This document shows, one piece after another, positions 1,668 through 55,800 of a stretch of DNA of 64,000 bases; the first letter of the stretch is position 1, and each line of letters opens with the position of its first letter. A program made the position numbers and the translations under genes. This DNA is from Planctomycetota bacterium (GTDB taxonomy: Bacteria; Planctomycetota; UBA1135; GCA-002686595), in assembly GCA_041398665.1 (NCBI GenBank), contig JAWKUH010000006.1:130596-194595 (forward strand), written 5' to 3'. The notes beneath the pieces were generated by a model. That model did not search any database. It had not been told where the DNA came from and saw only the letters and a list, made by a program, of their open reading frames with translations.

Positions 1668-4090
1668 GTGATCGAAGATCGGCGGGCGGACCGCAGAAAG
1701 GCTCGCGCCGATGCCGACAGAGGAGCGATGGGCTGGGCCCTCCTCGTCGGACTCGTGGCTGCGCTGGGTGCGGCGCTCCTCGGCGTCGCGCTGGTCCGTC
1801 GCAGTCGCCGCGAGCAGCACGGGACGCTGCACGAACGGCGCCGCGCGGAACGCACCGGTGCGGCGAGGGCGGAGCTCCAGCACCCCGTCGTCGACCTGAC
1901 GCGCTGCCTCGGGTGCGGCACGTGCGTGCGCGCGTGTCCCGAGGAGGGCGTGCTCGCGCTGCTGCACGGGCAGGCCGTCGTCGTGCGCGGCTCGGGCTGC
2001 GTCGGGACGGCGAGCTGTGCACGCGAGTGTCCGACCGGAGCGATCACGGTCACGCTCGCCGATCTCGCGACGCGGCGCGACGTGCCGGTGCTCGACGAGG
2101 GACTCGAAGCGGTGGGGCGCCCCGGTCTGTTCCTCGCGGGCGAGGTGACGGCGCACGCGCTCGTGAAGACCGCGGTCGACCACGGCACGCTGGTCGCCGC
2201 GACGGTGGCGGAGCGCGCGCAGCGCGAGGGCGCGGCGCGCGAGACCGGCGTGCTCGACCTCGCGATCGTCGGCGCGGGTCCGGGCGGACTCGCGTGCGCG
2301 CTGGAGGCGAAGCGTCTCGGGCTCGACTTCGTCCTGCTGGAGCGCGAGAGCGACCTCGGCGGCACGGTCGCGCGCTACCCGCGCCGCAAGCTCGTCGCGA
2401 CACGACCCATCGACCTCCCGCTGCACGGTCGGCTGCCCGAGCGCACCTACCTCAAGGAGGAGCTGATCGAGCTGTGGCGCGGGCTCGCCGCGGAGCACGA
2501 CCTGCCCGTCGTGTGCGACTCGACGTTCGAGTCGCTCGACCGGGACGACGCGGGCACCTACACCGTGCACGCGAGCACCGGCGAGGTGCGCGCACGCAAC
2601 GTGTGCCTCGCGATCGGGCGGCGCGGCGTGCCGAACCGGCTCGGCGTCCCGGGCGAGGACGCGCCGAACGTCGCGTACAGCCTGCTCGACGCGGACGCCT
2701 ACGAGGGCGAGCGCATCCTCGTCGTCGGCGGCGGCGACAGCGCGGTCGAGGCGGCGCTCGGTCTCACCGCGCGCGGTGCGAACGAGGTCACGCTGAGCTA
2801 CAGGCGCTCCGACTTCTTCAGGCTCGAGCCCTCGAACGAGCGCCGCATCCGCGAGGCGGCGGCGAGCGGGCGCGTCACGGTGCTGTTCGAGAGCGAGGTG
2901 CTCGAGATCGACGCGGGCGAAGTGCGCCTGCTCGCGCGTTCGGCGGACGTGGCGGGTCGCGGCACGGGCCGCACGAGCACCGACGGAGCCCCGAGCCTGG
3001 TGCCGGGCGGTCCGGGGCGCGTGCACCACGGCGCGTCGCACGAGACGCTCGAACGTCGCGTCGCCGTCTCGACCGAGGCGCGCGCCGAGCTCGTGCTGCC
3101 GTGCGACCGCGTGTTCGTGATGGTCGGCGGCACGCCGCCGATCGCACAGCTCGAGGCGGCGGGCGTCAGCTTCGACCCGACGCTGCGCCCGGCGGCGCCG
3201 GAGATCGGCGAGCAGGGCAGCGGCCTCGTCCGCGCGCTCGGCGCGGGCTTCGCCGTCGCGCTGTTCGGCCTCGCGTTCGCGCTGTGGCACCGCGACTACT
3301 ACCTCCTGCCGACGTTCGAGCGCGCGGCGTCGCCGAAGCACGACCTCCTGCGGCCCGGACTCGGACTCGGGCTGTGGCTCGGGGTCGGGTCGATCGCGCT
3401 CGTCGTCGCGAACCTCGCGTACGTGCTGCGCCGCTCGCCGCGCTCGCGCGTGCGCTTCGGGTCGCTCGCGAACTGGATGACGGTGCACGTCGCGACGGGC
3501 GTGCTCGCGCTGCTCACCGCACTCGTCCACTCCGGGATGGAGCCGCGCGACACGGTCGGGGGCCGAGCGCTGTGGGCCATGGTCGCGCTGTTCGCGACGG
3601 GAGCCGTCGGGCGCTACCTCTACGCCTACGTCCCGCGGGCGGCGAACGGGCGCGAACTCGAACTCGCCGAGATCCGCGGCCGACTCGCGCGTCTGGCGGA
3701 GGGCTTCGTCCGTGTCGACGCGCGACTCGCGGCGCTGGTGCGCGACGAGACGCTGGAGCTGGTCGAGCGGCGGCAGTGGAACACGTCGTTGCCGGCGCGC
3801 CTGCTCGCGCTCGTCGGCGCGGAGACCGGGCTGCGCCGACTTCTGCGCCGCGTGCGGACCGAGGGCGCCGCCGCCGGACTCGCGCAGGACCAGATCGACG
3901 AGGTGACGGAGCTCGCGCGCCGCGCGCACCGCTCGGCGCTCGCGACGGCGCACATCGACGACCTGCGCGGGATCATGGCGAGCTGGCGCTGGCTGCACCG
4001 CTGGGCGCGCTGCTCCTGCTCGTGCTCGTCGCGCTGCACGTGGTCTACGCGCTGGCGTACGGCGGCTACCTCGCGGGAGGCGCGCGGTGA
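1668..4090 (+). CDS. Membrane-bound fusion oxidoreductase: N-terminal TM helix, two 4Fe-4S ferredoxin-type CxxCxxCxxxCP motifs, FAD/NAD(P)-binding pyridine-nucleotide-disulfide-oxidoreductase-like domain, C-terminal 5-TM domain with conserved His. Apparent 1-nt frameshift near 4003-4008.
   Basis: Frame of ORF 1668..8069 gives CLGCGTCVRACPEEG and CVGTASCARECPTG, GAGPGG and GGGDSAVE dinucleotide-binding motifs, then TM helices (FALWHRDYY, WMTVHVATGVLALLTALVHSG). The last TM helix and stop are read in the frame of ORF 1367..4090 (LLLLVLVALHVVYALAYGGYL*). Start could alternatively be M at 1728. GTGA overlap with next gene. Confidence 0.65.
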
Positions 4091-6225
4091 ACGCCGACGA
4101 TCCGCCGCCGCCGTCCGTCGCGTGGTACCGCCGCCCGCAGTTGTGGGTCGCGGTCTGCAGCGCCGTGCTCGTCACGACGCTCGGCGTCGTCGGCAAGGAC
4201 CGCAAGTCGCCGGGTCCGCTCGCCGCGGCGCACGCGCGCGTCGCCGAGCTCGCGGGCGGTGCGAGCTGCTCGGAGTGCCACGGCGGCTGGTTCCAGGACA
4301 TGTCGAGCGCCTGTCTCGACTGTCACGAGGCGATCGAGTCGCAGATGGACGACGGGCGCGGCCTCCACGGGCGACTCGCCGAGGACCGGCGCGCGTGCGC
4401 GTCCTGCCACTCCGACCACCACGGCGCGAACTTCGCCATGGTGAACGACGTCTCGTTCCGCAAGGCGGGCGTGCCGAACGTCGACGCCTTCGACCACTCG
4501 CTCGTCGGCTTCGACATGGACGGGAAGCACGTCGAGCTGGCGTGCACGGACTGCCACGCGCACGCCTTCGACGAGGTCGTCCCGGAGGGCGTCACGCGCT
4601 TCACGGGACTCTCGCAGCGTTGCGCGGCGTGCCACGAGGACGAGCACCACGGCGCGTTCGGCCAGGACTGCGCGAGTTGCCACGTGCAGGAGAGCTTCAC
4701 CGAGCACGTCGCGACGTTCCACGACGACGTCCTCCCGCTGATCGGCGGGCACGGCGGCATGGACTGTCGCGCGTGCCACGCGGAGGGCGAGGTGCACAGC
4801 CTCGAGGTCGTCGCGGGCAACGGCTCGAAGCCGACGGCGCGCGCCTGTCTCGACTGCCACGACTCGCCGCACGGCGAGGCGTTCGTGACCCGCAACGCCC
4901 GCGACTCGCGCACCAGTCTCGAGGCGTCGTGCGTCGTCTGTCACGCCGCGGCGCACACGAGCTTCCGCGACGAGGCGCTCGAAATCACCGCGGAGCAGCA
5001 CGCGGCGTCGGGCTTCCCGCTCGCGCTGCCCCACGACGAGGTGACGTGCGACGGATGCCACGCGCCGGAGCCGGAGGACTTCGCCGCGCGCTACCCGGGT
5101 CGCGACGCCGATCGTTGCGCGGCGTGCCACGAGGACCCGCACGGCGGGCAGTTCGCGACGGGACCGTTCGCGCAAGAGGGCTGCGTCGCCTGCCACGGGC
5201 GCGAGCGCTTCGAACCGCACGGTTTCACCGCGGAACTGCACGCGCGGGCCGCCCTGCCGCTCGAGGGCGGTCACCTCGGGGCGGCGTGCGAGGACTGCCA
5301 CACCGTCGCCCACGACGGCGAACCGCGCACGTTCCGCGGCACGAGCGACACGTGCTCGGCGTGCCACGAGGACGCGCACAACGGGTTCTTCGACTCGCGC
5401 ACACAGGCGCTCGAACCGGTGGCGCACGGCGACTGCGCGCGCTGTCACGGCGCGACGGCGTTCGCGCAACTGGTGCCGGAGAGCTTCGACCACACGCGCT
5501 GGACGGGCTTCCCGGTCGACGGCGCGCACGAGGCGGAGGGCTGCGCGAGCTGTCACGCGAGCACGGCGGAGCCCGACGCCGCGGGCCGCACGTTCGGACG
5601 CGTCGCGCCCGAGCACGGCGAACTCGTCGCCATGCACGCCGGGCCCGAGGTCGGCCGCTCGTGCGCGGCCTGCCACGAGGACCCGCACGGCGGCCGCTTC
5701 GACGCGGAGGGACTGCCGGAGCGGTACGACGAGCGCGAGGGCTGCGCGCGCTGCCACACCGACGCGTCGTTCCGCGACCTCTCGCGCGGCTTCGACCACG
5801 GACTGTGGACCGGTTTCCCGCTCGACGGCGCGCACGGCGAACAGTCGTGCAGCACGTGCCACGCGCCGCTGCGCGCACCGACGACGGAGGGGCGCACGTG
5901 GGGCTTCGCGAAGGGCGCGGACTGCGCGTCGTGCCACGCCGACCCGCACGGCGGTCAGTTCCGCGAGCGCGACGCGCAGGGGACCCTCGGAGCGACGGAC
6001 TGCGCGCGCTGCCACCAGAACACGACGTCGTTCGCGAAGCTGCGCTTCCGCCACAACTGGGACTCGCGCTTCAAGCTCGACGAAACGCACGCGAAGGTGG
6101 ACTGCGCGCAGTGCCACCGCCCCGAGGTGATCTCGGGTGCGCCGACGTTCCACTACAAGCCGCTCGGAACGAATTGCACGGACTGCCACGGGGTGGGGGC
6201 GAGTTCGCTGAGGAAGGACGGGTAG
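4087..6225 (+). CDS. Periplasmic multiheme cytochrome c, about 23 CxxCH motifs, paired-CXXCH / cytochrome c7-like repeats, N-terminal signal anchor
   Basis: 712-aa ORF with roughly 23 CxxCH motifs (CSECH, CLDCH, CASCH ... CTDCH), many in CH..DxH / doubled arrangement. Hydrophobic N-terminus LWVAVCSAVLVTTLGVV without lipobox. Confidence 0.85.
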   Translation: MNADDPPPPSVAWYRRPQLWVAVCSAVLVTTLGVVGKDRKSPGPLAAAHARVAELAGGASCSECHGGWFQDMSSACLDCHEAIESQMDDGRGLHGRLAEDRRACASCHSDHHGANFAMVNDVSFRKAGVPNVDAFDHSLVGFDMDGKHVELACTDCHAHAFDEVVPEGVTRFTGLSQRCAACHEDEHHGAFGQDCASCHVQESFTEHVATFHDDVLPLIGGHGGMDCRACHAEGEVHSLEVVAGNGSKPTARACLDCHDSPHGEAFVTRNARDSRTSLEASCVVCHAAAHTSFRDEALEITAEQHAASGFPLALPHDEVTCDGCHAPEPEDFAARYPGRDADRCAACHEDPHGGQFATGPFAQEGCVACHGRERFEPHGFTAELHARAALPLEGGHLGAACEDCHTVAHDGEPRTFRGTSDTCSACHEDAHNGFFDSRTQALEPVAHGDCARCHGATAFAQLVPESFDHTRWTGFPVDGAHEAEGCASCHASTAEPDAAGRTFGRVAPEHGELVAMHAGPEVGRSCAACHEDPHGGRFDAEGLPERYDEREGCARCHTDASFRDLSRGFDHGLWTGFPLDGAHGEQSCSTCHAPLRAPTTEGRTWGFAKGADCASCHADPHGGQFRERDAQGTLGATDCARCHQNTTSFAKLRFRHNWDSRFKLDETHAKVDCAQCHRPEVISGAPTFHYKPLGTNCTDCHGVGASSLRKDG

Positions 6226-6305
6226 GTCCGAGCTCCGCAGACTTCCTCGAACTCCACTCCCGTCGCGCGGCGGAGGCGGCCGATCTGCTCCCTCCGGGGT
6301 CCTCC

Positions 6306-8069
6306 ATGCGAAGGAACGGGGCGGGGAGAGCGGCGGCGGCGTGGACCGCGGTGTGGGTGCTCGCGGGTGCGGCTTCGGCCGACGGCGCGACGGCTCCCGC
6401 CGTCGACGCGCAGGAGGAGGCGCAGGACGAGGTGCGCCTCGAGCTGCGCGTCACCGTCGTCCTCACCGAGCGGCGCGCGTCGGTCGACCGCGGCGCGAGC
6501 GACGGGCTCGCGGTCGGCGACGTCGTCTGGTTGCTTCCGCGCGAGGGCGGCCGGTTCCGCGCGTCGGTCGTCGCCGTCGAGGAGCGCTCCGCGGTGGTGG
6601 AGCTCGACGGCGCGGACGTCGCGCTGGCCGCGGGGCTGAAGGCCGAGGCGACGGTGCCGGCGTCGCGCTTCGAGAGCGAGGACGGCGCGAGCGAACCGAC
6701 GGGCGCGACCGACGCGCCGACTCCCGCCGCGAACGCTTCGAACGACGCGACCGGTGCGCGTCCAAGCCCGAACTCGATCTGGCGCGACCGCGACGAGGAG
6801 TTCGCGGACGGGATGCCGCTGCTCGCCGGCGTGGAGGCGGTGTCGCCCGGCGACCGCACGCCGTTCGTGCGCGGTCGCGTGTGGCTCTCCGTCGACGGGA
6901 CGTACACGGGACAGGACGGGCGCTCCGACCAGTTCGTGCGCGCGGGCACCGACGTCACGTACGAGAACCCGTTCGGACAGGGAGGCGTGCTCGACCTCGG
7001 CGTCGACTGGGAACGGTTGCGCTTCGACCGTCCCGAGCTCGACGACCTCGCCGACACCGAGCTCCGCTTCGAACGCCTCTCGTACGCCTTCGGCGGCACG
7101 CGCTTCGACGGCGACCGCTACCAGTTCGGGCGCTTCCTGCAACACGGCATGCCCGAGTTCGGCGTGCTCGACGGCGCGGAGTGGTCGCGGCGCACGGACG
7201 AGCACCACAGCTTCGGTGCGAGCGTCGGCTACATGCCCGAACCCGACGCGGAGTACGAGAGCGGACACGACTTCCAGCTCGCCGGCTGGTACCGCTGGAC
7301 GTCGGACGCGACGGAGCTCGCAGCGGCGAAGGTCGGCTTCCAGAAGACCTGGCACGACGGCGCGCCGGACCGCGACCTCGTCGTCCTCCAGGGCCACTAC
7401 CTCCCGCGCGACGGGTGGAGCACGCAGGCCTCGGTGTGGATCGACGCGACGGGCGGCGGCGAGATCGAGGGCTCGGGGCCGTCGGTGTCGCACGCCTACC
7501 TCTCGGCCTCGCCGTACACCGCGAGCCGCTTCGGGCTCGAACTCAACTACAGCTACCTCGACTTCCCGGAGCTCGAGCGCGACGAGTACCTGCCGACCCC
7601 GGCACCGATCGAGATCGCCGACCAGCGCGTCCACCGCCTCGGCGCGGACTGGTGGGTGCCGATGGGGGACGGCTCGCGTTTCACGGGTCGACTCGGCGGG
7701 TGGAGCGACGCGACGAACGACGGCGGCGACGTCGAGGTCGGCGTCGACGTCGTCGACATCGTGGGGCGCGGTTCGCACCTGCGGCCGCTCCTGTTCCTCG
7801 CGCGCGGCGCGGGCACGAGCGTGTGGGGCACGCGGCTCGGACTCTCGTTCGGCGGCGAGAAGGTGCGCTACGACCTCTTCTACGAGCTCGCCAACTACCG
7901 ACAGAACGGGTTCCCCGGGGGCAACGACGACTTCGTGCAGCACCGGCTGCGGACGAGCGTCTCGTGGTACCCGACGCCGCACTGGGCGCTCACCGCGCAC
8001 GTCGACGGCACGACCTACCACGAGGAACGCGGAGCGACGGCGGGGGTGTACGCGCAATGGAGTTTCTGA
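6306..8069 (+). CDS. Outer-membrane beta-barrel (porin-like) protein, putative porin component of a porin-cytochrome complex
   Basis: Signal peptide MRRNGAGRAAAAWTAVWVLAGAASA, acidic linker, then alternating hydrophobic/aromatic beta-strand pattern with many Gly/Asp/Tyr/Trp. C-terminal AQWSF (terminal Phe typical of OMPs). Lies between two cytochrome genes. Confidence 0.6.
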   Translation: MRRNGAGRAAAAWTAVWVLAGAASADGATAPAVDAQEEAQDEVRLELRVTVVLTERRASVDRGASDGLAVGDVVWLLPREGGRFRASVVAVEERSAVVELDGADVALAAGLKAEATVPASRFESEDGASEPTGATDAPTPAANASNDATGARPSPNSIWRDRDEEFADGMPLLAGVEAVSPGDRTPFVRGRVWLSVDGTYTGQDGRSDQFVRAGTDVTYENPFGQGGVLDLGVDWERLRFDRPELDDLADTELRFERLSYAFGGTRFDGDRYQFGRFLQHGMPEFGVLDGAEWSRRTDEHHSFGASVGYMPEPDAEYESGHDFQLAGWYRWTSDATELAAAKVGFQKTWHDGAPDRDLVVLQGHYLPRDGWSTQASVWIDATGGGEIEGSGPSVSHAYLSASPYTASRFGLELNYSYLDFPELERDEYLPTPAPIEIADQRVHRLGADWWVPMGDGSRFTGRLGGWSDATNDGGDVEVGVDVVDIVGRGSHLRPLLFLARGAGTSVWGTRLGLSFGGEKVRYDLFYELANYRQNGFPGGNDDFVQHRLRTSVSWYPTPHWALTAHVDGTTYHEERGATAGVYAQWSF

Positions 8070-8734
8070 AGAACGTGCTGCAGCGCCTCCGCCGCCTCGG
8101 CGTCCCCGCGCTCGGGACCGTCGTGCTCGGCGCGTCGCTCGTCGCGTGCGCGCTCCAGCGCACGGGCGGGCTCGAAGTGCACCGCTGGTGGGCCGGCCTC
8201 GGACCCGTCGTGCCGCACGAATCGTTCCCCGAGGACTGCTCGCTCTGCCACGTCGGCGACACCTGGAACACGCTGCGCGCCGACTTCGAGTTCGACCACG
8301 AGGAACGCACGGGCGTGCCGCTGCTCGGCGCGCACTCCGCGGCGCAGTGCCTGCGCTGCCACAACGACCGCGGTCCGGTGCAGACCTTCGTGCAGCGCGG
8401 CTGCGCGGGTTGCCACGAGGACGTCCACCAGGGGCACCTCGGCACGAACTGCTCGGAGTGCCACGAGCAGAACACCTGGCGCGCCGTCGGACAGGTCGAG
8501 CGGCACTCGCGCACGCGCTTCCCGCTGACCGGCGTGCACGCCGTCACGAGCTGCCAGCGCTGCCACCCCGGAGTCGACTCCGGCCGCGTCGCGCCGACGA
8601 GCACGGAGTGCGTCTCGTGCCACCTCGACAACCTGAACTCCGCCGTCGTGCCCGACCACTTCGCGTTCGGGTGGGTGAACGACTGCGGTCGCTGTCACCT
8701 GCCGACGACGTGGCAGGAAGCGGTCGGCTTCTGA
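8057..8734 (+). CDS. Lipoprotein heptaheme cytochrome c (outer-membrane cytochrome candidate)
   Basis: 225 aa with lipobox LVAC. 7 CxxCH motifs (CSLCH, CLRCH, CAGCH, CSECH, CQRCH, CVSCH, CGRCH). Start overlaps OMP stop by 13 nt. Confidence 0.8.
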   Translation: MEFLKNVLQRLRRLGVPALGTVVLGASLVACALQRTGGLEVHRWWAGLGPVVPHESFPEDCSLCHVGDTWNTLRADFEFDHEERTGVPLLGAHSAAQCLRCHNDRGPVQTFVQRGCAGCHEDVHQGHLGTNCSECHEQNTWRAVGQVERHSRTRFPLTGVHAVTSCQRCHPGVDSGRVAPTSTECVSCHLDNLNSAVVPDHFAFGWVNDCGRCHLPTTWQEAVGF

Positions 8735-8744: not shown

Positions 8745-10913
8745 TCAGCGCTCCGTCGGGTCCTGCGAGAGGTAGCCCAGACTCTCCAGTTCGTCGCGGA
8801 GGTCGCTCGCGAGGTTGCCGAGGTCGGCGGGTTCCCGGTCCGGCGCGACGGCTCCGTCGACGACGTCCGCGACGCGACGTGCGAGCGCGTCGGGCCAGGA
8901 CGCGTCGGCGCTCCGGATCGGACGGAGCTCGTCGGGATCGGTCGCGAGGTCGAACGCGCGCCGCGGTGAGAGCGCGACGGGGTCGAGCATCAGCTTCGTC
9001 GCGCCGTCCGTCGCCGTGAGGCGGGCGTCGCGCCTCGCGCGGGCGAACGGAGCCGCGTCGTCGCCCGACGTCCACGACGTGAAGGCCAGCGCGTCGTCGC
9101 GCTCCTCGGCGAGGTCGCGACCGCGGAAGCTCGGCGGCGCCGCGACGCCGGCCAGGCCGAGGAGCGTCGGCGCGAGGTCGATCGTCGACGTCGCGTCGCG
9201 CCGCACGCCCGGCTCGACACCGGGGCCGCTCCAGAGCAGCGGCACGCGCGTCTGCGACTCGTACGCCGGACCGATGTGGCGGAACCAGTCGTGGTCGCCG
9301 AAGGCCTCGCCGTGGTCGCTCGTGAACAGGAGGTGCGAGTTGGCGCGCCAGCCCTTCGCGTCGAAGTCGCGCAGCCAGTCGCCGAAGGCGGCGTCGAAGT
9401 CGAGCATCTGCGCGCGGTAGAGCGCGAGGATCTCGCGCATCTCGGGCCGCGCGTAGTCGCCCGACATGCGCTCGAGCAGTTCGCTCTCGCTCGGTCCGTC
9501 CGCCGGGAGTCCGACGGCGACGCGCGACGCGTCGGACGGCTCGAGCGGGTCGTGCGTGAAGTACGTCTGCACGAACAGGAACGTCGGCCGACCGTCGTGG
9601 GCGTCGAGCACGGCTTGCGCGCGCCGCAGGCCGCTCGTGCGGCTCCGCGAACCCTGGACGTACGACTCGAAGCCCTGCGCCAGCCCGAAGGCCGACGACG
9701 TGTACGCGCCGTCCGTGACCGCGACGGTGCGGTAGCCGGCGTCGCGCAGACTCTCGGCGAGCGTCTCGACGCTCGCCGGGAGCGCCTGCGTCGAACTCTC
9801 CACCCGGTGCCCGCGCGGCAGCTGACTCGCGAAGAGCGACGCGTGCGACGGCAGCGTCCACGTCGCCGCGGACCACGAGTTCGCGAACTCGATCGACCCG
9901 CGGCGGAGGCGCTCGAGGTTCGCGAGGTCGAGGTCCCGCGGCGAGTCGGCGTAGCGTCGCTGGGTCGAGAGTCCGTCCGCGCGGAAGGTGTCGGCGAGGA
10001 AGACGACGAGGTTCGGTCGGTCGGGGTCGGTCGGCGGCTCGTCCGACGGCACGGGGCCGAGCATCGGCGCGGCGAACCCCGTGAGGGCGAACGACCCGCT
10101 CGTCTCGAAGCGCAGCGTCGCGCGCTCCGCGATCGGCGGGAGGTCGACGGAAGCGAAGTGGAAGCTGCCCGTCGGCGAGTCGTCGCCGGGGTCGACGGTG
10201 CGCGACCACACCGGTCGGCCGTCGAGCAGCACGCGGAACCGGACCTCGCCCTCGGCGACGGGGAGCGTCGAGAAGCAGCCGAACGAGAGTCGTCGTTCGC
10301 CGCCGGGAGCGATCGTCCGCGCCGTGCTCGTCCCGGGCAGTACGAGCATCCCCTCGCCCGCGTAGGGGCCGACGTCGACGCGCCACACGTCGTCGTCCGG
10401 TTCGCCCACCGGGACGGGGACGAGGTGCTCGATGCGGACCGGTCGCGGCTCGCCCTCCTCGAGCCGCACGAACAGCGCGTCGTCGTTGAAGGAGAACGTG
10501 CCTCTCGGCGCCGACGCGGGGTCGAAGGCGACGTCGCCGATGGCGAGCTGTGTCAGCGGTCGACCGTCGACGACGACGACCTGCTCGATCGGGGCGACGG
10601 CGCTCGTGCTCAGGTTCGGCAGGTGCCGCGGCGCGTAGAACCCGCCCTCGAGGGGCAGCGGCATCCAGGCGTCGTCGTCGTAGGCGACCGAGATCCAGGG
10701 GCGACCGCCGACCTCGACGAGTCGCACGACCGAGCGGTCGTGGCGCGCGATCTCGAGCGGGTACTCGACCTCGCCGTCGTCGAAGTCGGTCGCGAGGTGC
10801 ACGCGACCGGCGTCCGCATCGGGGAGCGCGCGCGGCGCTCCGCCGCAGCCCGCGAGCGACAGCACGACGGCGGTCGCGGCGAGCCGCCGGGTCTGTCGAG
10901 AGGGGCGCGACAT
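8745..10913 (-). CDS. Sulfatase-family lipoprotein (arylsulfatase / alkaline-phosphatase superfamily)
   Basis: Lipobox LSLAGCGG. Sulfatase signatures TWTLPSHASLFASQLP and LLFTSDHGEAFGDHDWF. Confidence 0.75.
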   Translation of the reverse strand: MSRPSRQTRRLAATAVVLSLAGCGGAPRALPDADAGRVHLATDFDDGEVEYPLEIARHDRSVVRLVEVGGRPWISVAYDDDAWMPLPLEGGFYAPRHLPNLSTSAVAPIEQVVVVDGRPLTQLAIGDVAFDPASAPRGTFSFNDDALFVRLEEGEPRPVRIEHLVPVPVGEPDDDVWRVDVGPYAGEGMLVLPGTSTARTIAPGGERRLSFGCFSTLPVAEGEVRFRVLLDGRPVWSRTVDPGDDSPTGSFHFASVDLPPIAERATLRFETSGSFALTGFAAPMLGPVPSDEPPTDPDRPNLVVFLADTFRADGLSTQRRYADSPRDLDLANLERLRRGSIEFANSWSAATWTLPSHASLFASQLPRGHRVESSTQALPASVETLAESLRDAGYRTVAVTDGAYTSSAFGLAQGFESYVQGSRSRTSGLRRAQAVLDAHDGRPTFLFVQTYFTHDPLEPSDASRVAVGLPADGPSESELLERMSGDYARPEMREILALYRAQMLDFDAAFGDWLRDFDAKGWRANSHLLFTSDHGEAFGDHDWFRHIGPAYESQTRVPLLWSGPGVEPGVRRDATSTIDLAPTLLGLAGVAAPPSFRGRDLAEERDDALAFTSWTSGDDAAPFARARRDARLTATDGATKLMLDPVALSPRRAFDLATDPDELRPIRSADASWPDALARRVADVVDGAVAPDREPADLGNLASDLRDELESLGYLSQDPTER

Positions 10914-11115
10914 GGAACAGCGTCGGCTGCGCGCCAGGGTAGCAGCTCGCGTCCGACGATCGCGCGGCGTCACCGACTCGTCCGCGCGATCGACGTCGGC
11001 GCGCGACCGCTGCGCGGGCCGACGTGCGTCGGAGCGGCGACGGAGCGCATTCGCTCAGGACTCTCTCGGGGTTCCCTCCGCGAGCGCCGCGCCGCGTGCG
11101 ACGTAGGTTCGGGCC

Positions 11116-12540
11116 ATGCAGCTCGTCGATCGCCGCGCGTTCCTGGCCCGATCCTCCGTCCTCGTCGCGACGCTCGCCGCCGGACGGCACCTCGTCCCGC
11201 GCGTGCCGCGCGCCGACGTCGAGGCCTTCTTCCGCGCCGTCGCCGCGGGCGACCTCGCCGAGGTCCGCGCGAGGCTCGCGGCGGCACCGGAACTGCTTGC
11301 AGCCGTCGACGAGCTCGGTCGCAGCGGGTTCGCCGTCGCGCTGCTCCGCGGCCGCGTCGAGGTGGCGGCGCACCTGCGGGCCGCCGGTCACGCGCCGGAT
11401 CTGCACGAAGCGGCGCTCGCACTCGACTGGGACCTGTTCGAGCGTCTCGCGACGGCGTCCCCGGGACGAGCTGACGCGCTGCACCCGATCGGCGGGACCG
11501 CGATGCACGCGGCGGCACTCGGGGGAGCGGGTCCCGCCATCTGGCACGTCTACGCCGCGCCGGCGCACCCGAACCCCGACCGGCCGAGCGACCGCGTCCC
11601 CTCGCCGCTGCGCGCGGCGTTCGAGTACGGCGACCTCGAGGTGGCCGAGCTCACCGCCGCCGCGCTGCTCGCCAACGGCGCCGACCCGAACGCGCGCGAG
11701 CCGCGCGGGGACGGCGCGCTCCACGCCGCGGCGCGCCGCGGTTCGACCGAGCTCGTCGAGCTGCTCGTGCGCGTCGGAGCGGACACGCGAGCGCGCGACG
11801 AGGACGGACTCGACGCGAAGGAAGCCGCGGAGCGCGCGGGGGCGAGCGCCGTCGTCGCCCTCCTCGAGCGCGCCGACGAGCTGCCGCGCGACCGCTCGAC
11901 CTCGCGTCGCGCACGCACGGTCGACGGCGAGTCCTACGCGCCGCCCTCGATCGACGACCTGCCCCTCGCGGAGCGGGGCAGGGTCGTCGGGAACGCCCAC
12001 CGCGACCTCGACGCGGTCCGTTCGGCGGTCGAACGAGAGGAACGCTTCGTCCACTCCGTCGCGACGACGACGGAGGGCGCGGTCGAGGCGGCGGCGCACA
12101 TGGGGCGCCGCGACATCGCCGAGTACCTCCTCGAGCGCGGCGCGCCGTGCTCCCTCCCGACGGCTGCGTCGCTCGCTCTGCGGGACCGCGTCGACGCGCT
12201 CCTCGCCGAGGATCCGCTGCGCGTGCACGAGCACGGTGCGCACCGCTATCCGCTCCTCTGGTACGCGGCGATCGGCGACGGCGGCGTCGGACTCGCCGAG
12301 CGCCTCGTCGCGGCGGGTGCGGACGTCGAGAGCCAGCACCACCTCGGGACGACGGCGCTCCACCTGGCGGCGCGCGACGGTCTGACGGACCTCGTCGCGT
12401 TCCTCCTCGAGCACGGCGGCGACCCGACCCGCGTCGGGAGACAGTTCCAGGGTCGGCGCGAGACGCCGATCGACCTGGCGCGGGCGCGCGGGAACGAGCG
12501 CGAGCTCGAACTGCTGGAGCGCGCCGCACGCGCGCGGTGA
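11116..12540 (+). CDS. Tat-exported ankyrin-repeat protein
   Basis: Twin-arginine motif RRAFLARSSVLVATLAAG. Repeated G-x-T/A-LH-AA...G-x-x-x-V-x-LL motifs (GTAMHAAALGG, GDGALHAAARRGSTELVELLV, GTTALHLAARDGLTDLVAFLLEHGGDP). Confidence 0.65.
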   Translation: MQLVDRRAFLARSSVLVATLAAGRHLVPRVPRADVEAFFRAVAAGDLAEVRARLAAAPELLAAVDELGRSGFAVALLRGRVEVAAHLRAAGHAPDLHEAALALDWDLFERLATASPGRADALHPIGGTAMHAAALGGAGPAIWHVYAAPAHPNPDRPSDRVPSPLRAAFEYGDLEVAELTAAALLANGADPNAREPRGDGALHAAARRGSTELVELLVRVGADTRARDEDGLDAKEAAERAGASAVVALLERADELPRDRSTSRRARTVDGESYAPPSIDDLPLAERGRVVGNAHRDLDAVRSAVEREERFVHSVATTTEGAVEAAAHMGRRDIAEYLLERGAPCSLPTAASLALRDRVDALLAEDPLRVHEHGAHRYPLLWYAAIGDGGVGLAERLVAAGADVESQHHLGTTALHLAARDGLTDLVAFLLEHGGDPTRVGRQFQGRRETPIDLARARGNERELELLERAARAR

Positions 12541-16501: not shown

Positions 16502-16504
16502 GTC

Positions 16505-48400: not shown

Positions 48401-50088
48401 ATGCGCATCGCCCTCGTCACGACGCCGCCCTCCGTCCGATCCGGCATCGGCGACTACACGCGCCACCTCGTTCCCTACGTGAGGGAGCACGCCGACGTCG
48501 ACGTCTACGTCGCGCCGCCGCTCGCGGGCGAGCCGCTCGACGAGGCGCTCGGCGGGGCGTCGCGCGCTCCGTCGACGATCTCGACCCGGTGCAGTACGAC
48601 CACGTCCTGTACCAGCTCGGCAACGAGTCGAACCACGCCTTCGTCGTGCGCGCGCTCCCGCGCCTCGGCGGGACCGTCGTGCTGCACGACTGGGTCCTGT
48701 TCGACATGGCGCTCGCCGCGTACCCGGCCATCGCCCGCGGAGGTCCGAAGGGCGCCGCGCTCGTCCTGCGCGAGGGCGGACTCGGTCAACTCGCACGCTA
48801 CGTCCGCAACTTCGCGGACCGCCGCGTGCAGAAGCGTCGTCCCGAGCGCGAGCCCGACCACACGTCCCTCGTGGGTGAGATCCTCGCGGGCTGGCACGCG
48901 CCCGAGGACCGCGGGCGCTGGACCTGCGACTTCGGCTCGTTCCGCGTGCCCGACCCGGACGCCGACGCGCTCGAGGTCGAGTTCCACGCGCCGCCGGGAC
49001 GCACCGTCACGCTCTGGCGCGACGGGGAGCGACTCGCCGGCTTCGTGACGACGCCGCAGTGCGCGGACACGACCTTCGAGATCGAGCTGCACCGTCCGAG
49101 CGACGCGCCGTTCGTGCTGCGGGCGGACCCCGTCGTCGTCACCGACGAGCAGCGGCGGTACGGCGACTCGCGGAGGCTCGGGACGTTCGTCAAGTCGATC
49201 CGCTACCGCAGCGGCGAGGCCTGGCGCGAGGTCGGTCTCGCGCTCCCGCCCGCCCACCACACGATCCCGGTCACGCTCTCGCGCGACCGCTTCGACCTCC
49301 CGCTCAACGGCTCCGTCCTCCGACACGCCGACTCGTTCATCGTGCACTCCGACTACGTCGGCGATCGCATCCGCGCGGAGCGCGGCGACCACGTGCAGGT
49401 GGGCCGCGTCTGGCACGGCGCCGAGGACCGCAGCGACGACCGCGACCGACGCGACGTCCGCTCGGCGCTCGGTCTGCCCGGAGCGTGGCGCGACGACTTC
49501 GTCGTCGTCAGCTTCGGCGGTGTGCAGCCGCACAAGCGGATCGACAAATTGCTCGACGGTCTGGTGCTCGCGCGCCGCGAACGCCCCGACATCCGACTGG
49601 TCCTCGCGGGCAAGGTCGCGGGCGACTTCTTCGACGCGGCGGACGAGGTCCGACGGCGTCACCTCGACGACGCGGTGCGCCTGACGGGGTTCGTGCCGGA
49701 GGAGATCGGCTGGGAGTGGCTGCGCGCCGGCGACCTCTCCGTGAACCTGCGCGGACCGACGTCGGGCGGCACGTCGGGCGGGATCTTCCAGAGCTTCGGG
49801 CTCGGTCGCGCCGTCATCGCGAGCGACGCCGCCGAGCAGCGCGAGCTGCCCGACGAGTGCACGCTCAAGGTGCCGCTCGGCGAGGGCGAGGTCGAAGCCA
49901 TCGCGCGCACGCTCGTCGACCTGCGCGACCACCCCGAGAAACGCGACGCGCTGGAGCGCGCCGTGCGCCGCTTCGTCGCGACGGAGTGCCACTGGCGGAT
50001 CCAGGCCGAGCACTACCTCGAGCTGCTCGAACGCTTCCGGCCCCCGAGGAGCTCGGGGCGGAGTCGGCCGCTCGTGGCGACGACGTGA
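48401..50088 (+). CDS. GT4-family (GT1-fold) glycosyltransferase; apparent 1-nt frameshift at ~48551-48570
   Basis: N-terminus MRIALVTTPPSVRSGIGDYTRHL in the frame of ORF 48401; the rest (DLDPVQYDHVLYQLGN...EX7E-like AEQRELPDE) in the frame of ORF 48589..50088. Frame change within ggcggggcgtcgcgcgc. Confidence 0.65.
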
Positions 50089-50097: not shown

Positions 50098-50445
50098 TCA
50101 CCCGAGCCTGAGCCCGCACGACGGACAGCGCGTCGGCACGCCGCGGATCGGGTCGCCGCAGGCGGGACACGTGTTCTCGTCGGACTCGAGGTCGACGACG
50201 GTGGAGGCGCGCTCGCGCGCCTCCTCGGGGATCGCCGAGTCGAACTCCGCCTCGATCGCGGCGACCGCCGCTCGCGCCGAGCTGCCCGCGACCGCGAGCA
50301 GGTACTTGGTGCCTCAGGCGTTCGCGTTCTGGCCGGGCGGCTGGACGATCTCCGCGGGGATGCCGGTGGCCGCGAGGGTGCGGCGCATCTCGCGCAGTCG
50401 TTGGAAGCCGCCCTGCGCGACGAAGATCAGGTCGTCGCCGTTCAC
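50098..50445 (-). CDS. Small (115-codon) protein with C-terminal zinc-ribbon (CPACGDP...CPSCG) interrupted by an in-frame TGA at codon 44 (50314-50316); pseudogene, recoding or base-call error
   Basis: GTG start 9 nt inside the end of the upstream gene. Translation VNGDDLIFVAQGGFQRLREMRRTLAATGIPAEIVQPPGQNANA*GTKYLLAVAGSS...CPACGDPIRGVPTRCPSCGLRLG*. No start codon after the TGA. Confidence 0.4.
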
Positions 50446-51071
50446 GGTGCGATCCTAGCAAGCCTGCGTCCGCGGCGTCCGCTCCGCGCGGCCTCGTCCT
50501 CGGTCACGAAGTTGGCGATCAGCGGCGTGCCCCACACGTCGCACCCGAGCTCGCGCAACCAGGTCCGCGTGCGGTCGTTGCAGTGGTGGAGCACCGAGTA
50601 GGAGTTCGCGTCGTCGGGGACGAACTCGAGTCGGTAGAGCGTGCTGTAGAGGCGCTCGTCGCGCGCCTCCTCGAAGCGCGCGACGAGGCGCGACTCGAGG
50701 GCGGCCGCCGCACCGCGCTCGACGTCGAGCCCGATCACCTTCTCGGCCCAGAACGCGCGGGCGATCGCGTCCGCTTCGGGCGGCCCGTTCCAGGGCGCGC
50801 GACCGAGCGCCGCGCGCGTCGGCCAGAACAGCACGGCGGGCAGGCGCCACCAGTCCGTGTCGTCGAGCGCGAACCAGCGCCACTCGCCCCACGCCCACAG
50901 GTCGTGACCCGTGCCGTCCGAGCGCGGCAGCACGAGCGCGGAATGGCGACCCTGGTCGACGACGAAGACGCGAACGGGGTCGACGACGTCCCGCGGGGGG
51001 ACGACGACGGCGCGACAGCTCGCGAGCGTGAGCGCGGCGGCGAGCGCGAGGGCCCGCGCGTCGCGCTTCAC
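50442..51071 (-). CDS. Lipoprotein, DUF2459-like (conserved hypothetical)
   Basis: GTG start. Lipobox LTLASC. Conserved-looking HCNDRTRTWLRELGCDVWG. 4-nt overlap with the upstream His-rich lipoprotein gene. Confidence 0.5.
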   Translation of the reverse strand: MKRDARALALAAALTLASCRAVVVPPRDVVDPVRVFVVDQGRHSALVLPRSDGTGHDLWAWGEWRWFALDDTDWWRLPAVLFWPTRAALGRAPWNGPPEADAIARAFWAEKVIGLDVERGAAAALESRLVARFEEARDERLYSTLYRLEFVPDDANSYSVLHHCNDRTRTWLRELGCDVWGTPLIANFVTEDEAARSGRRGRRLARIAP

Positions 51072-51556
51072 GGGATCAGTCGGATCACGGCCGTCGCCTT
51101 CGTGCCGTCGGGTCCCTCGAGCTCGAGCGAGAGCGTCGCTCCGCTCTCGATCCCGGCGGGCAGCTCGCCGACGTGCAGGTCGAAGTCGGAGCCGTTCTCG
51201 GCCTTGGCGGAGGCGCGCAGCGACTTCGCGCCGGTCGCGTCGATCACCTCGCCGCGCACGATCGACACACCCTCCGCCTCGATCTCGAAGGCGAGCTCCT
51301 CGACCGGCGTCGTGCGCGGCCGGAACCACGTGACGTGGACGTCGGCGAAGTCGCCCATCGCGCCCTCGTGGACCGTGACGGGGTCGCCCAGGTCGGCGTG
51401 GTCGTGCGCGTGGTCGTGGTCGGCGTGGTCCTCCGCGCCGTGGTCGTGATCGGCGTGGTCGTCGGCATGGGTCGCAGCCTGACCGCCGTCGTTCGAGCCG
51501 CCGCCGCAGGACGGCAGGAACGCGAGGAGGGCGAGGAGGATCGTCGTCGAACGCAT
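51068..51556 (-). CDS. Lipoprotein with His/Asp-rich metal-binding-like tract
   Basis: Lipobox FLPSCGGG followed by HADDHADHDHGAEDHADHDHAHDHADLGD, then a beta-rich domain. Confidence 0.6.
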   Translation of the reverse strand: MRSTTILLALLAFLPSCGGGSNDGGQAATHADDHADHDHGAEDHADHDHAHDHADLGDPVTVHEGAMGDFADVHVTWFRPRTTPVEELAFEIEAEGVSIVRGEVIDATGAKSLRASAKAENGSDFDLHVGELPAGIESGATLSLELEGPDGTKATAVIRLIP

Positions 51557-51644
51557 GGTGGTGTCTCCGTGGGGTGCGTCGGTTCGGGTTCGTCTCGTCG
51601 AACGCCGCGGTGGCGCGTCGACATGGGCCGGGTCTCGGCGAACG

Positions 51645-54329
51645 TCAGCGACGCTCGAGGTCGTCGCGCCAGCGCTGGAGCAGCGTCAGCGCCTGGATCG
51701 GCGTCGTCCGATCGAGGTCGAGCGCGCGGATCTCGCGTTCGACCTCGCTCTCCGGTGCGTCGAAGAACGAGAGCTGGCGCGGTGCGCCGGGACGCCGCTC
51801 GGGACCGCCGGGTTCGAGGTACGCCGACTCGTCCTCGAGGCTCGCGAGGACCTGGCGCGCGCGTTCGAGCACGGGCGCCGGCACGCCGGCGAGTCGCGCG
51901 ACGTGGATGCCGTACGAGCGGTCGGTCCCGCCCTCCTGGATCGTGTGCAGGAACACGATCTCCTCGCCCCATTCGCGCACGGCGACGGAGAGGTTGAAGA
52001 CGCCGGCGAGGCGGTCCGCGAGATCCGTGAGCTGGTGGTAGTGCGTGGCGAACAGCCCGCGCGCACGGACGGCCTCGTGGAGGTGCTCCACGATCGCCCA
52101 GGCGAGTGCGAGGCCGTCGAACGTGCTCGTACCGCGCCCCACCTCGTCGAGCACGACGAGCGAGCGCTCCGTCGCGTTGTTGAGGATGTTCGCGATCTCG
52201 ACCATCTCGACCATGAAGGTCGACTCGCCGCGGCTGATGTCGTCGCCGCTCCCCACGCGCGTGAAGATGCGGTCGACGACGCCGACGCGCGCCGACTCGG
52301 CCGGGACGAAGCTCCCGATCTGCGCGAGCAACGCGATCAGTGCGGTCTGGCGGATGTAGGTCGACTTGCCCGCCATGTTCGGCCCCGTGAGGATGCCGAC
52401 GAGACGACCGTTCGACGCGTCGCCGTCGAGCCGCGTGTCGTTCGGCACGAACGTCTCGCAGGTCGGCGAGAGCTCGATCACGGGGTGCCTGCCGCCGACG
52501 ACCTCGAGGACCGTCGAGTCGTCGACCTCGGGGCGGACGTAGCGGTTCGTCGCGGCGCACTCCGCGAGCGAGACCAGGGCGTCGAGCGTCGCGACCGCGT
52601 CCGCCGTCTCGAGGATGCGGTCGGTGTGCTTCGCGATCTCGTCGCGGAGCGCCATGAAGATCTCGTACTCGAGCTCCTGCGCGCGCTCCTCGGCGGTGAG
52701 GACCTTGGTCTCGAACTCCTTGAGCTCCGACGTGATGTAGCGCTCGGCCGTCTTGACCGTCTGCTTGCGCACCCACTCCGGCGGCACGCGGTCGACCTGG
52801 CCGCGGGGCACCTCGATGAAGTAGCCGAAGACCGAGTTGAAGCCGACCTTGAGGCCGTTGATGCCGGTGCGCTCGGCCTCGTCGGCCTGCATGCGCGCCA
52901 TCCACGACTTGCCGTCGCCCGCGATGCTGCGCAGCTCGTCGAGCCTCTCGTCGAAGCCGTCGCGCACGAGTCCGCCCTCGCGCAGCGTCATCGGGGGCTC
53001 GTCGACGACCGTCGTGAGCACGCGCTCCGTGACGTCCGTGAGCGGGTCGAGCCGTGCCAGGAGTTCGACGAGCAACGGCGCGCCGCGATCCTCGAGGAGC
53101 TTGCGCAGTTCGGGCACACGTCGCGTCGACTCCGCGAGCGCGCGCACGTCGCGCCCGTTCGCTCGACCCGTCGACACCTTGGCGACGAGTCGTTCGAGGT
53201 CGCGCACGTCGGAGAGGACGCCGCGCAGGTCCTCGCGCACGAAGGACTCCTCGACGAGCTCGGCGACGGCCGTCTGGCGCGCGCGGATCGTCCCGACGTC
53301 GCGCAGCGGAGCGAGGACCCACTCGCGCAGCATCCTGCCGCCCATCGGCGTCGACGTCGCGTCGAGGACGTCGAGCAGCGTGCCTTCGCGCCGCGACCCG
53401 CGCTGCGTCTCGACCAGCTCGAGCGTCGAGCGCGTCGCGCGGTCGAGCACGAGGTGGCGCGAGGGGTCGACGGGCTCGATGCGTCGCACGTGCTGGCACG
53501 CCGCCTTCTGCGTCTCCTCGAGGTACTCGACGAGCGCTCCCGCGGCGGGCACGACGGCCGATCCGTCGTCGACGCCGAAGCCGCCGAGCGTGCGCACGCC
53601 GAAGTGGCGCTCGAGCACGCGACGCGCGGCGCTGCGGTCGAAGCGCCAGGCCTCGCGGTCGCTCGCGAGTTCGTGGTGGAGTCGCTGGAACTCGGTGTGG
53701 ACCTGCGAGTCCGGGTCGAGCGAGTCGAAGGGGACGAGGACCTCGGCCGGCGCGATGCGCGCGAAGAGGTCGAGCAGTCCGGCGTCGTCGGTCTCGCAGA
53801 CCTGGAAGCGTCCGGTCGAGACGTCGACCCAGGCCACGCCGTTCCTCGCTCCTTCTCCTTCGCGGGCCGCGGCCACAGTGCGACGAGGTAGTTCGACGCG
53901 CGCGCGTCGAGCGCGTCCTCCTCCGTCAGCGTCCCGGCGGTGACGACCCGGACGATGCCGCGGTCGACGATACCTTGGTCTTCTTCGGGTCGGCGAGCTG
54001 TTCGCAGATGGCGACCTTGAAGCCCTTGCGCACGAGGCGCAGCAGGTAGCCGTCCACCGACCGGACGGGCACGCCGCACATGGGCAGCGCGGCCTCGTCC
54101 TTGTCGCGCTTGGTGAGCGTGATCCCGAGCTCGCGCGACGCGGTGACCGCGTCGTCCCCGAACATCTCGTAGAAGTCGCCCATCCGGAAGAAGAGCAGTG
54201 CGTCGGGCTGCTCGTCCTTCGCCCGCACTGCTCCATCATCGGCGTCTGCTTGCCGTCGCGGGCACCCGGGCCGGGTGCCCGCCCCGGCCAACTTCCGTCC
54301 GGCGACGCGGGTGGTGCTGCGGGGGTCAT
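51645..54329 (-). CDS. mutS: DNA mismatch repair protein MutS; N-terminal mismatch-binding domain carries three apparent 1-nt frameshifts (~54223, ~53970, ~53849)
   Basis: ATPase/clamp/C-terminal domains intact in one frame ([29 protein letters not shown]). N-terminal TPMMEQ..., [41 protein letters not shown] are distributed over three reading frames. Gene length is a multiple of 3, so the shifts cancel. Confidence 0.85.
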
Positions 54330-54542
54330 GTGGGTCTTCCGGGAGATTCGGGCGGGCGGCAGCGTACTCTGAGCGGCCCGCGTCGCGACCCGCGACGCGC
54401 CGTTCGCGACCCGACGTCCGTGCTCGCCGCCGACTTCCGACCCGAGACGCTCCGCGCTCCCTCCGACCGTCGTCACGACGCTCGTCGAGGCGTCCCTCCC
54501 GCCGCACCGCGCCGACGGAGGACCGCTCTCGTCGTCGCGTCG

Positions 54543-55800
54543 ATGTTCCTCGCCGTCGCGGCGTCGGGATGCGCGGGGTACCCCGAGCGCGCGGGTCGCG
54601 CACTCGCGCAGTACCGCGCCGGCGCCCTCGACGAGGCCGCGACGAGCTTCGAGTCGGGCGACGTCACGGACAGCGCGTTCCTCTCCGGCGCCGAGGTCGG
54701 GATGATCCGCCTCTCGGCCGGTGAGTGGGAGGCGGCGCGCGACGCGCTGACCAGGGCCGCGGAAGCGGCGCGCGACGCCGAGGAGAAGTCGCTGCTCTCG
54801 GTGTCCGAGGGCGCGGAGTCGGTCGGCACGCTGCTCGTCAACGACACCGTGGCGGCGTACACGGGCGAGGGCTACGAGCGCGTGCTCGTCCACGCCGCGC
54901 TCGCGATCGCCTACCTCGCGCTCGGCGACGTCTCCGGCATGCGCGTCGAGACGCGGCGCGCGAACCAGGTCCTCGAGGGCGAGGAGGCGCTGTACGAGAC
55001 GAAGTACGGCGCGGGCGGGCTCGGGCACCTCCTGTCCGCGGTGAGCTACGAGATGGAGCGGCGCCTCGACGAGGCCCTGATCGACTACCGGCGGATGGTG
55101 GAGAAGGGGGTCGGCCTCGAGATCGCGGGGCCGAGGCTGCGCGAGCTCGCGGACTTCTTCGGACGCGACGACGTGGCCGAACTCGTCGCGGACTACGAGC
55201 CGGCGGTGTCCACCGACGAGCCGTACGCGACGGTGTGGGTCCTCGGCGCGATGGGGCTCGCGCCCCAGAAGGTCGAACGGAGCCTCAACCTCCCGACGCC
55301 CGTCGGCTTCGTGCGCATGACGGCGCCGGACTACGTGTCGAGCGGCGGCGCGCGGACGCTCACGCTCGTGCTCCCCGACGCGGGTGAGTCCGTGGCCTGC
55401 ACGGTCGTCGAGGACGTCGACGCCGTCTCGCGCGAGAACCTCTCGGACCGGCTCGCCTGGATCGCGGCGCGGACGGCCGTGCGCGCCGGCATCCGCGCCG
55501 GTGTGCACGAGTACGTCGAGAAGGAGCACGGCGCGCTCGCCGCGTTCGGCGTCGACGTCCTCGGCCTCGCGCTGGAGCGCGCGGATCTGCGCTCGTGGCT
55601 CACGCTCCCGCGCGAGTGGCAGGCGGCGCGCGCCGTCCTGCCCCCGGGGGGCCCACACCCTCGAACTGACCACCTCCGGCGGCGACAGCGTCCGACTCGG
55701 TCGCTACGAACTGGAGGAAGGAGAGACCATGCTGATCTTCGCGCGTAGCGTGGACGGCTGGCTCGAAGCACACCCGATCGGCGGCCTCCGGGTGGAATGA
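54543..55800 (+). CDS. Lipoprotein, hypothetical (helical repeat-like); apparent frameshift at ~55641-55650 in cccccgggggg
   Basis: Lipobox AVAASGC. C-terminal beta-like segment [49 protein letters not shown] in the frame of ORF 55384..55800. Confidence 0.5.

Follow-up and report, generated by a model that had tools for sequence, protein, structure and literature searches.

Seven small frame-breaking indels in five conserved genes, including mutS, in a 64-kb stretch of a Planctomycetota MAG: probable errors of the consensus sequence

Seven small indels break the reading frames of five otherwise conserved genes, mutS included, in the window, i.e., the 64-kb stretch of DNA from the metagenome-assembled genome (MAG) of an uncultured Planctomycetota bacterium that was analyzed as a whole. 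Correcting one base or a few restores the frame at each of the seven sites, and tblastn with orthologues as well as repair scans revealed that the same protein resumes in another frame. Five of the breaks correspond to one missing base, one (site S4) to one extra G, and one (mutS break (a)) to four missing nucleotides. The frame breaks exist, and fully conserved protein is found on either side of them. With a probability of roughly 0.7, the best explanation is that all seven are indel errors in the consensus sequence of the MAG; we infer that the actual organism has intact genes. The window was covered by a codon-usage frame scan together with orthologue checks, and repairs were located with scans of the summed alignment score. 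The following features are concerned:

S1, 4003 to 4008, plus strand: net -1, context ctgggcgcgc, relative position 0.965 in a Fer4, FAD/NAD oxidoreductase and cytochrome-b-like membrane fusion gene (1668 to 4090)
S2, 26849 to 26853, plus strand: net -1, context gagccctgtt, 16 codons from the end (relative position 0.982) of a PA14/ThuA gene (24151 to 26900)
S3, 48554 to 48560, plus strand: net -1, context ggcggggcg, codon 52 (relative position 0.092) of a GT4 glycosyltransferase gene (48401 to 50088)
mutS, 51645 to 54239, minus strand: body (domains II to V) intact in one frame, domain I spread over three frames
mutS break (a), 54224 to 54227, minus strand: net -1, codon 5
mutS break (b), 53972 to 53976, minus strand: net -1, codon ~89, context ccaaggtatc
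mutS break (c), 53848 to 53854, minus strand: net -1, codon ~131, within the purine-rich repeat aaggagaaggagcg
Lipoprotein gene, about 54198/54240 to 55800, plus strand: start uncertain, carries S4
S4, 55646 to 55651, plus strand: net +1 (the G6 run has one G too many), context cccccgggggg, relative position 0.903 in this conserved lipoprotein gene upstream of LpoB

The broken genes are 5 of the 45 genes in the window (11%), and there is about one event per 9 kb, which is a high load for a free-living, densely coding genome. An earlier note on this DNA had named breaks at four places and in mutS, and all of these were present, as Pfam and orthologue alignments revealed that the protein continues in a different frame past each of S1 to S4 and the mutS breaks. 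The note had counted eight events; the frame scan and the orthologue checks yielded seven and no further frame break in the 64-kb window. Compensated double frameshifts were searched for within the orthologue alignments, and none were found. The tRNA and Rfam scans of the window gave no RNA genes, and thus no RNA gene with a diagnostic indel. Some frame switches were rejected as breaks. The one at 45269-45304 is the ordinary junction between a YfhO gene and a gene for a small secreted protein, those at 6195-6225 and 8066 are normal gene junctions with signal-peptide starts, and at 60316 a PEPCK stop codon is followed by a separate TPR gene. The switch at 50098-50454 reflects two genuine small genes, of 49 aa and 67 aa, which the relative L004 has conserved. 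At 10885-11421 and 17646-18188 the scan gave antisense artefacts, in ankyrin-repeat and sigma-factor genes.

At S1, the frame-3 alignment of ten homologues stops at 4004-4007, 20-30 residues before their own ends, and the lost conserved tail (GALLLLVLVALHVVYALAYGG) is encoded in frame 2. The junction reads ...SWRWLHRW and then GALLLLVLVALHVVYAL in frame 2, up to a stop at 4090 that overlaps the GTG start (4087) of the next gene. The summed alignment score was 711 without repair and reached 985-1004 with any single base added at 4003-4008. At S2, tblastn of homologues halts at 26847-26850 and picks up again in frame 3. Most genome loci among the matches listed span the junction (residue 900), with alignments ending at query residues 907-916, and the repaired protein matches Pfam ThuA at positions 1-209 of 209 (E 6.7e-73). 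The gene is present in NCBI as the unrepaired read-through of 950 aa with a wrong C-terminus (MEZ5977289.1), in which a false tail of 51 residues replaces the true C-terminus of 16 residues.

At S3, the counterpart of residues 1-52 of the syntenic L004 orthologue (555 aa) is encoded by frame 2 of 48401-48556 (73% identity, E 3e-19), and that of residues 53-554 by frame 1 of 48556-50052 (68% identity). The site reads ggc ggc ggc (GGG) in the orthologue DNA. At S4, the alignments of three orthologues (L001, L003 and L004) leave frame 3 at 55648-55649 and continue in frame 1. The best repair was the removal of one G from 55646-55651, with a score of 1068 versus 524 without repair. The repaired gene and LpoB (start at 55797) then overlap through a terminal ATGA, an arrangement that L003 and L004 share. 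The genes at S1, S2, S3 and S4 align to their orthologues over the full length, and no other lesion was seen in these alignments.

The mutS gene was hit three times. Break (a) is, from the aligned sequences, most parsimoniously a 4-nt deletion (TCTG) outside any homopolymer. The L001 orthologue has cagTTCTGGcgg opposite cagTGcgg in the window (atg atg gag cag ttc tgg cgg gcg aag versus atg atg gag cag tg cgg gcg aag), and all close orthologues show MMEQ[FW]W[RKSA]AK[DE]E. The 4-nt repair scored 1992, in comparison to 1907 for the best 1-nt repair. Around break (b), orthologue residues 7-90 lie in frame -2 and residues 86-139 in frame -1. An added G and an added A scored equally (both 1681) and gave ...DPKKTKGIVDRG..., so the lost base may have been G or A. 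For break (c), the orthologues leave frame -1 and resume in frame -3 between 53864 and 53834, many options at 53848-53854 were equal (scores 1822-1827), and after repair a stretch of 19 residues agrees with WPRPRKEREARNGLAWVDV of the homologue P0006. Without repair, Pfam detected MutS_I positions 10-93 of 113 in one piece, and MutS_II (16-132), MutS_III, MutS_IV and MutS_V in a piece of 730 aa. This MutS piece is identical (100%) to the public protein MEZ5977309.1 (MAG: Planctomycetota bacterium; locus-tag prefix R3F34), which lies on one contig of 214,796 bp, and six more proteins of the window match public proteins exactly. In protein searches, the mutS N-terminus had no match above 64% identity, and matches to the full-length protein, the MAG's own entry aside, did not exceed 76%; a second assembly of the organism did not emerge from these searches.

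The conservation of MutS limits the age of the breaks. The segment between the breaks is 86-90% identical to its five closest orthologues, and those clades are 83-86% identical to one another over the same columns. The repaired protein retains all 198 columns that are invariant among 119 homologues. Because the out-of-frame segment is as conserved as the intact orthologues and the 198 invariant residues have been kept, the breaks are either artefacts or very recent.

The sequence context was only partly as the earlier note had described it, i.e., single lost G or C bases in homopolymeric GC context throughout. G/C runs are enriched, with a mean longest run of 3.29 at the seven tolerance intervals versus 2.01 in random 6-nt intervals (Monte Carlo p = 5.6e-4), an enrichment that is driven by S3 (G4) and S4 (G6). 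The apparent hit rate climbs with the length of the G/C run: about 1 in 6908 runs of 2 is hit and, at the upper end, 2 in 49 runs of 5. The G6 run of S4 is one of only nine G/C runs of at least 6 in the 64 kb, and the other eight are unbroken. Most hits are at runs of 2-4 nt, and runs no longer than 3 account for half of the events. One added base does repair S1, S2, S3 and mutS breaks (b) and (c), but G or C is not preferred there: repairs that extend the G/C run score equal to or slightly under those with other bases or at neighboring positions, and therefore the placement of the lost base in a homopolymer is an assumption at these five sites. S4 requires the removal of a G, and mutS break (a) requires 4 nt and lies outside any homopolymer. 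Neither a dip nor a peak of local G+C marks the break sites, and thus a GC-dependent drop in coverage is not supported.

The distribution of the events is also uneven. Three lie within 380 nt (p = 0.004) and five within 7.1 kb (p = 0.01), and all seven are located in the outer 15% of their gene, for which a post hoc test with a five-locus null gave 0.0024 under uniform placement and 0.0045-0.03 when weighted by the location of G/C runs.

The interpretation of the breaks as consensus errors is the one best supported by these results. Short indels, mainly of one lost base, would arise as reads are collapsed into a contig, and such errors would favor G/C runs and, in this case, the 5' end of mutS, where the sequence would be locally poor. 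Such a mechanism may fit a consensus from long reads or flow chemistry, or else coverage that was low or came from mixed strains. Indels in the consensus that disrupt gene calls have been documented in unpolished long-read assemblies (Sereika et al. 2022, PMC9262707). The events resemble consensus errors of long-read (Nanopore R9-type, PacBio CLR) or flow-chemistry (454, Ion Torrent) sequencing in several respects: breaks of one or a few bases lie in conserved genes that are otherwise intact, most of the breaks are deletions, G/C runs are overrepresented, the genome is a MAG, and its public proteins include truncated or mis-extended ones. The systematic consensus error that had been proposed from the sequence is further favored by the lack of decay and by the fraction of about 11% of the genes that are hit. 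It fits less well in that one event is an insertion and another a 4-nt deletion outside a homopolymer, and in that simple homopolymer miscalling would predict neither the clustering nor the location at gene ends; most of the runs are also short (2-4 nt). For the three lesions in 380 nt of one gene, a local patch of low quality fits better than independent mutations. Two further observations speak against an artefact. The outer-15% pattern is not predicted by random error and is unexplained, and the gene that was hit most is mutS, whose loss would itself yield such mutations.

The strongest alternative is that the indels are real and that the organism belongs to a mismatch-repair-deficient (mutS-null) mutator lineage with recent slippage indels, the worst of which were purged by selection. 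We regard this as unlikely, and the narrower version, in which genuine frameshifts were caught shortly after the loss of mismatch repair in a natural hypermutator, with the surviving slippage indels filtered toward the gene termini, as slightly more doubtful still. In its favor, mutS is broken and its mismatch-binding domain I is out of frame, the indels are enriched in G/C runs with a rate that grows with run length, and the restriction to the outer 15% of the genes would be expected if mid-gene knock-outs had been purged, while the essential genes of the window (argS, topA, the sigma-70 gene and the M24 peptidase gene) are intact. In this respect the window is similar to mutS/mutL-null mutators from long-term evolution lines and clinical isolates, which have a disrupted mutS and frameshifts at mononucleotide runs in several non-essential genes. 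However, 11% broken genes without other decay would require a very recent origin. In mutS, three hits lie within 380 nt and the other 2.2 kb has none, a pattern that is unlikely for the neutral decay of a dead gene, and the S1 break would lead to a read-through of about 1350 codons across the downstream cytochrome genes, which is hardly mild. Slippage at runs as short as 2-4 nt, where most of the hits are found, is rare even without mismatch repair, as seen in mutation-accumulation studies. In contrast to the known mutators, the mutS lesion is seen here in a consensus sequence, its three parts are packed in domain I, the genome is an environmental consensus, and no substitution load is detectable; the nearest relative is only about 76% identical at the protein level, and therefore synonymous sites are saturated. 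In addition, we judge the prior for an environmental consensus MAG to represent a mutator clone to be low.

Improbable to a higher degree is a consensus of mixed strains, in which the contig would be a mosaic with indels where divergent haplotypes were merged or polished, and some broken alleles might exist in minority strains. The clustering of five events within 7.1 kb, three of them within 380 nt, would fit such a mosaic, as would the variability of the mutS neighborhood among relatives (a block of about 7 kb with efflux-pump genes is found downstream of mutS in L001, L003 and L004 and is missing in the window) and the 4-nt deletion, which is unlike a homopolymer error. Heterogeneity is not directly visible in a single consensus sequence, and the enrichment in G/C runs would be left unexplained. 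In practice, this reading amounts to one form of the artefact explanation.

Programmed events such as ribosomal frameshifting, transcriptional slippage or phase-variable tracts in the surface-related GT4 glycosyltransferase and lipoprotein genes are effectively refuted by the orthologue DNA, which has a single frame at the same codons, with ggc ggc ggc, ccc ggg gag or gcc ggg acc, and therefore neither a conserved tract nor a slippery site. Glycosyltransferase and lipoprotein genes are two classes in which phase variation is common in some pathogens, and S3 and S4 resemble contingency loci with slipped-strand mispairing in that they lie within G4-G6 runs in genes of these two classes. Yet phase-variable tracts are typically 7-8 nt or more, whereas the runs at the breaks are 3-6 nt and are not kept in the orthologues; moreover, the same type of break occurs in unrelated housekeeping-type genes, the five genes share no motif, and mutS is broken three times.

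Taken together, consensus error is the preferred reading, and the chief use of the finding is that of a quality flag, because about one in nine genes of the window is mis-called in the public record. Fragmentation of gene calls by such indels is what the IDEEL test measures. Claims of pseudogenes, gene loss or truncation from this MAG, including the claim that mutS is defective, are untrustworthy without read support. Gene prediction on this MAG should be frameshift-aware, and the earlier advice that gene calls tolerate frameshifts holds irrespective of whether the breaks are real or artefacts, as the public MutS stub and the wrong ThuA C-terminus illustrate. If the breaks were real, an uncultured phylum would provide an example of a natural mutator lineage and, with it, a rare view of the dynamics of environmental mutators.

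True coding frames were located by a codon-usage Viterbi scan, and each same-strand frame switch flagged by the scan was checked against three-frame translations, Pfam and orthologues. The G+C content is 68-76% across the whole window and, therefore, long ORFs occur in every frame. One plus-strand frame is open for 2133 codons over three separate genes (1668-8069), the third of which (6306-8069) lies in that frame by chance. ORF length alone is uninformative on coding status at 72% G+C. Orthologues for 48-63 kb were taken from three syntenic contigs of relatives, L001 and L003 (JGI) and L004 (Logan), homologues of the first gene from a representative-protein search, and ThuA homologues from a genome scan. 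The comparison located the following breaks, at which the same protein resumes in another frame:

4003-4008, plus strand: S1, Fer4/FAD oxidoreductase-membrane fusion gene (homologue alignments, repair scan)
26849-26853, plus strand: S2, PA14/ThuA gene (Pfam, genome loci, homologue alignments)
48554-48560, plus strand: S3, GT4 glycosyltransferase gene (L004 orthologue alignment)
55646-55651, plus strand: S4, lipoprotein gene (three orthologues, repair scan)
54224-54227, minus strand: mutS break (a), codon 5 (orthologue DNA)
53972-53976, minus strand: mutS break (b), in ccaaggtat (repair scan)
53848-53854, minus strand: mutS break (c), within the purine repeat aaggagaaggag (repair scan)

The breaks proposed earlier at four places and in mutS were thus borne out by the orthologue and homologue alignments, and S2 also by Pfam. 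The orthologue alignment places mutS in a single frame from 53843 to the stop and, therefore, mutS holds three events and the window seven, not the eight claimed. The remaining flagged switches were dismissed: they are normal boundaries between genes, small genes that are conserved, or artefacts of the scan on the antisense strand. No compensated double shifts were found inside the orthologue alignments. Broken genes make up 5 of the 45 in the window (11%). The scan missed a small ORF (58074-58277, minus strand) between the epimerase and PEPCK genes, which is conserved in L001 and L003 (41-56% identity).

In mutS, domain I is spread over three frames. At break (a) the orthologue reads cag TTC TGG cgg and the window cag TG cgg, with identical DNA on either side, and a 4-nt deletion would best explain the difference. 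Break (b) is repaired equally by an extra G or an extra A. The deletions (-4, -1, -1) total -6, and thus the ORF is open through the garbled region; the minus-strand frame across it is open for 1342 codons (51645-55673), from which a scrambled full-length MutS could in principle be translated. The would-be out-of-frame segment shows 86-90% identity to the closest orthologues, and the same columns 83-86% between those orthologue clades; the segment is at least as conserved as the clades are among themselves. Repaired MutS retains 198 of the 198 columns invariant in 119 homologues, and the other four broken genes align end to end with their orthologues. Because of this conservation, the lesions are either absent from the organism or very recent.

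The surroundings of mutS differ from those in all three relatives, in which the genes of an efflux system (outer-membrane factor, membrane-fusion protein, RND pump) occupy about 7 kb downstream:

L001, 12722-19626: efflux block region
L003, 12632-20462: efflux block region
L004, 5788-12782: efflux block region

The window lacks this block and has, in the corresponding region (50445-51645), a 209-aa protein instead, a rearrangement adjoining mutS. At 54198-54330, mutS and the lipoprotein gene, which diverge, seemingly abut or overlap at their 5' ends; in L004 the two are 64 bp apart. The apparent MutS N-terminal extension, common to the homologue P0002, may simply be opposite-strand coding, and the start codons are putative.

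For S1, ten homologues align in a single frame from about 1728 to 4004-4007, and these alignments end 20-30 residues short of the homologues' own C-termini. The missing conserved helix (homologue P0151: ...SWRWLHRWGALLLVLLLVLHVVYAL) is present in the neighbouring frame, up to the stop at 4090. A single base inserted at any position in 4003-4008 suffices. It raises the score from 711 to 985 if it lengthens the GGG run, and to 991-1004 otherwise. The neighbourhood (1668-8734 and 13634-16501) resembles a respiratory or extracellular electron-transfer cluster, in which the 4Fe-4S and FAD/NAD oxidoreductase is fused to a cytochrome-b-like membrane domain (weak DUF4405). Further members or neighbours are:

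4087-6225 and 8075-8734: multihaem c-type cytochrome genes, downstream of the oxidoreductase fusion
6306-8069, plus strand: 631-aa secreted protein without a Pfam hit, between the two cytochrome genes
13634-16501: 955-aa multihaem protein, a further member of the apparent cluster

At S2, one added base lets Pfam ThuA match over all 209 positions, and the repaired protein aligns over the junction, to a few residues from the C-terminus, in most of the 80 genome loci listed. Unrepaired, the homologue alignments end at 26847-26850, and the NCBI gene call is a wrong-frame read-through of 950 aa. At S3, the L004 orthologue matches with residues 1-52 in one frame and 53-554 in the next, the alignments meeting at base 48556; G-G-G at these codons is encoded ggc ggc ggc in the orthologue, and the lost base need not be a G. 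Two tiny neighbouring ORFs of about 49 and 67 aa (50104-50454, minus strand), without Pfam assignment, are kept in L004 (13273-13638; 49-55% identity) beside the same GT4 and M24-peptidase genes.

The frame switch at S4 was seen against three orthologues, and its direction demands removal of a base. With the G6 run shortened by one G, the score rises from 524 to 1068 and the length equals that of the orthologues (LPPGAHTLEL versus LVPGEHTLEL), and thus the earlier proposal of an added G or C is wrong here. Addition of one base does suffice at S1 and S2, but it need not extend a run at S1, where other insertions score higher, nor be a G at break (b).

As to the postulated homopolymer context, G/C runs are enriched at the breaks overall: the longest G/C run per tolerance interval, the range within which a break can be placed, averages 3.29 versus 2.01 in random 6-nt intervals (p = 5.6e-4). 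The 4-nt deletion is not in a homopolymer, and break (c) lies in a purine repeat. G/C runs in the window number 49 at length 5, eight at length 6 and one at length 7. A/T runs of at least 3 are nearly absent (48 in 64 kb). Local G+C at the breaks is not unusual. The breaks lie closer together than expected by chance: a stretch of 380 nt holds three of them (p = 0.004), and one of 7.1 kb holds five (p = 0.01). All seven lie in the outer 15% of their genes (0.965, 0.982, 0.092, 0.903, 0.005, 0.102, 0.150); for the five loci the post hoc probability is 0.0024 under a uniform null and 0.0045-0.03 under a null weighted by G/C-run position. G/C runs of at least 5 are themselves enriched there (50% within 15% of an end versus 30% expected).

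A single public protein, MEZ5977309.1, shares 100% identity with the 730 aa of MutS that are intact; it is annotated 'MAG: DNA mismatch repair protein MutS [Planctomycetota bacterium]' and located on one 214,796-bp contig. Six more window proteins match neighbouring accessions exactly (MEZ5977286-318, locus-tag prefix R3F34), and the window therefore belongs to a metagenome-assembled genome (MAG). After this protein, the best MutS match in the protein search has only 76% identity, the N-terminus query gave no match above 64%, and neither search, full-length or N-terminal, found a second assembly of the same organism.

That consensus sequences from unpolished long reads or low coverage suffer indel breakage is well documented (PMC9262707). 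Because the 11% broken genes, the MAG source and the run-associated indels match this pattern, we regard the breaks as consensus errors of this type, with a probability of roughly 0.7. The gene-end bias, a post hoc observation, is not explained by random consensus error. Both this bias and the fact that mutS, the mismatch-repair gene, takes the most hits would be expected if the indels were real and the population were a mutator lineage that had recently lost mutS and was subject to purifying selection; such a lineage is nevertheless unlikely, as three breaks fall in 380 nt of mutS and none in the remaining 2.2 kb, the S1 break would give a read-through of about 1350 codons, and very short runs account for the majority of breaks. 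A mixed-strain consensus artefact, which would account for the clustering and the 4-nt mutS deletion, is more improbable still. Programmed frameshifting and phase variation were excluded, since the orthologues are single-frame and no tract exists at these codons.

Taken together, the earlier observation was largely right, with corrections in four details, and its interpretation as systematic consensus error is, judged from the sequence, probably right as well. The result is a finding about data quality and of low biological interest.
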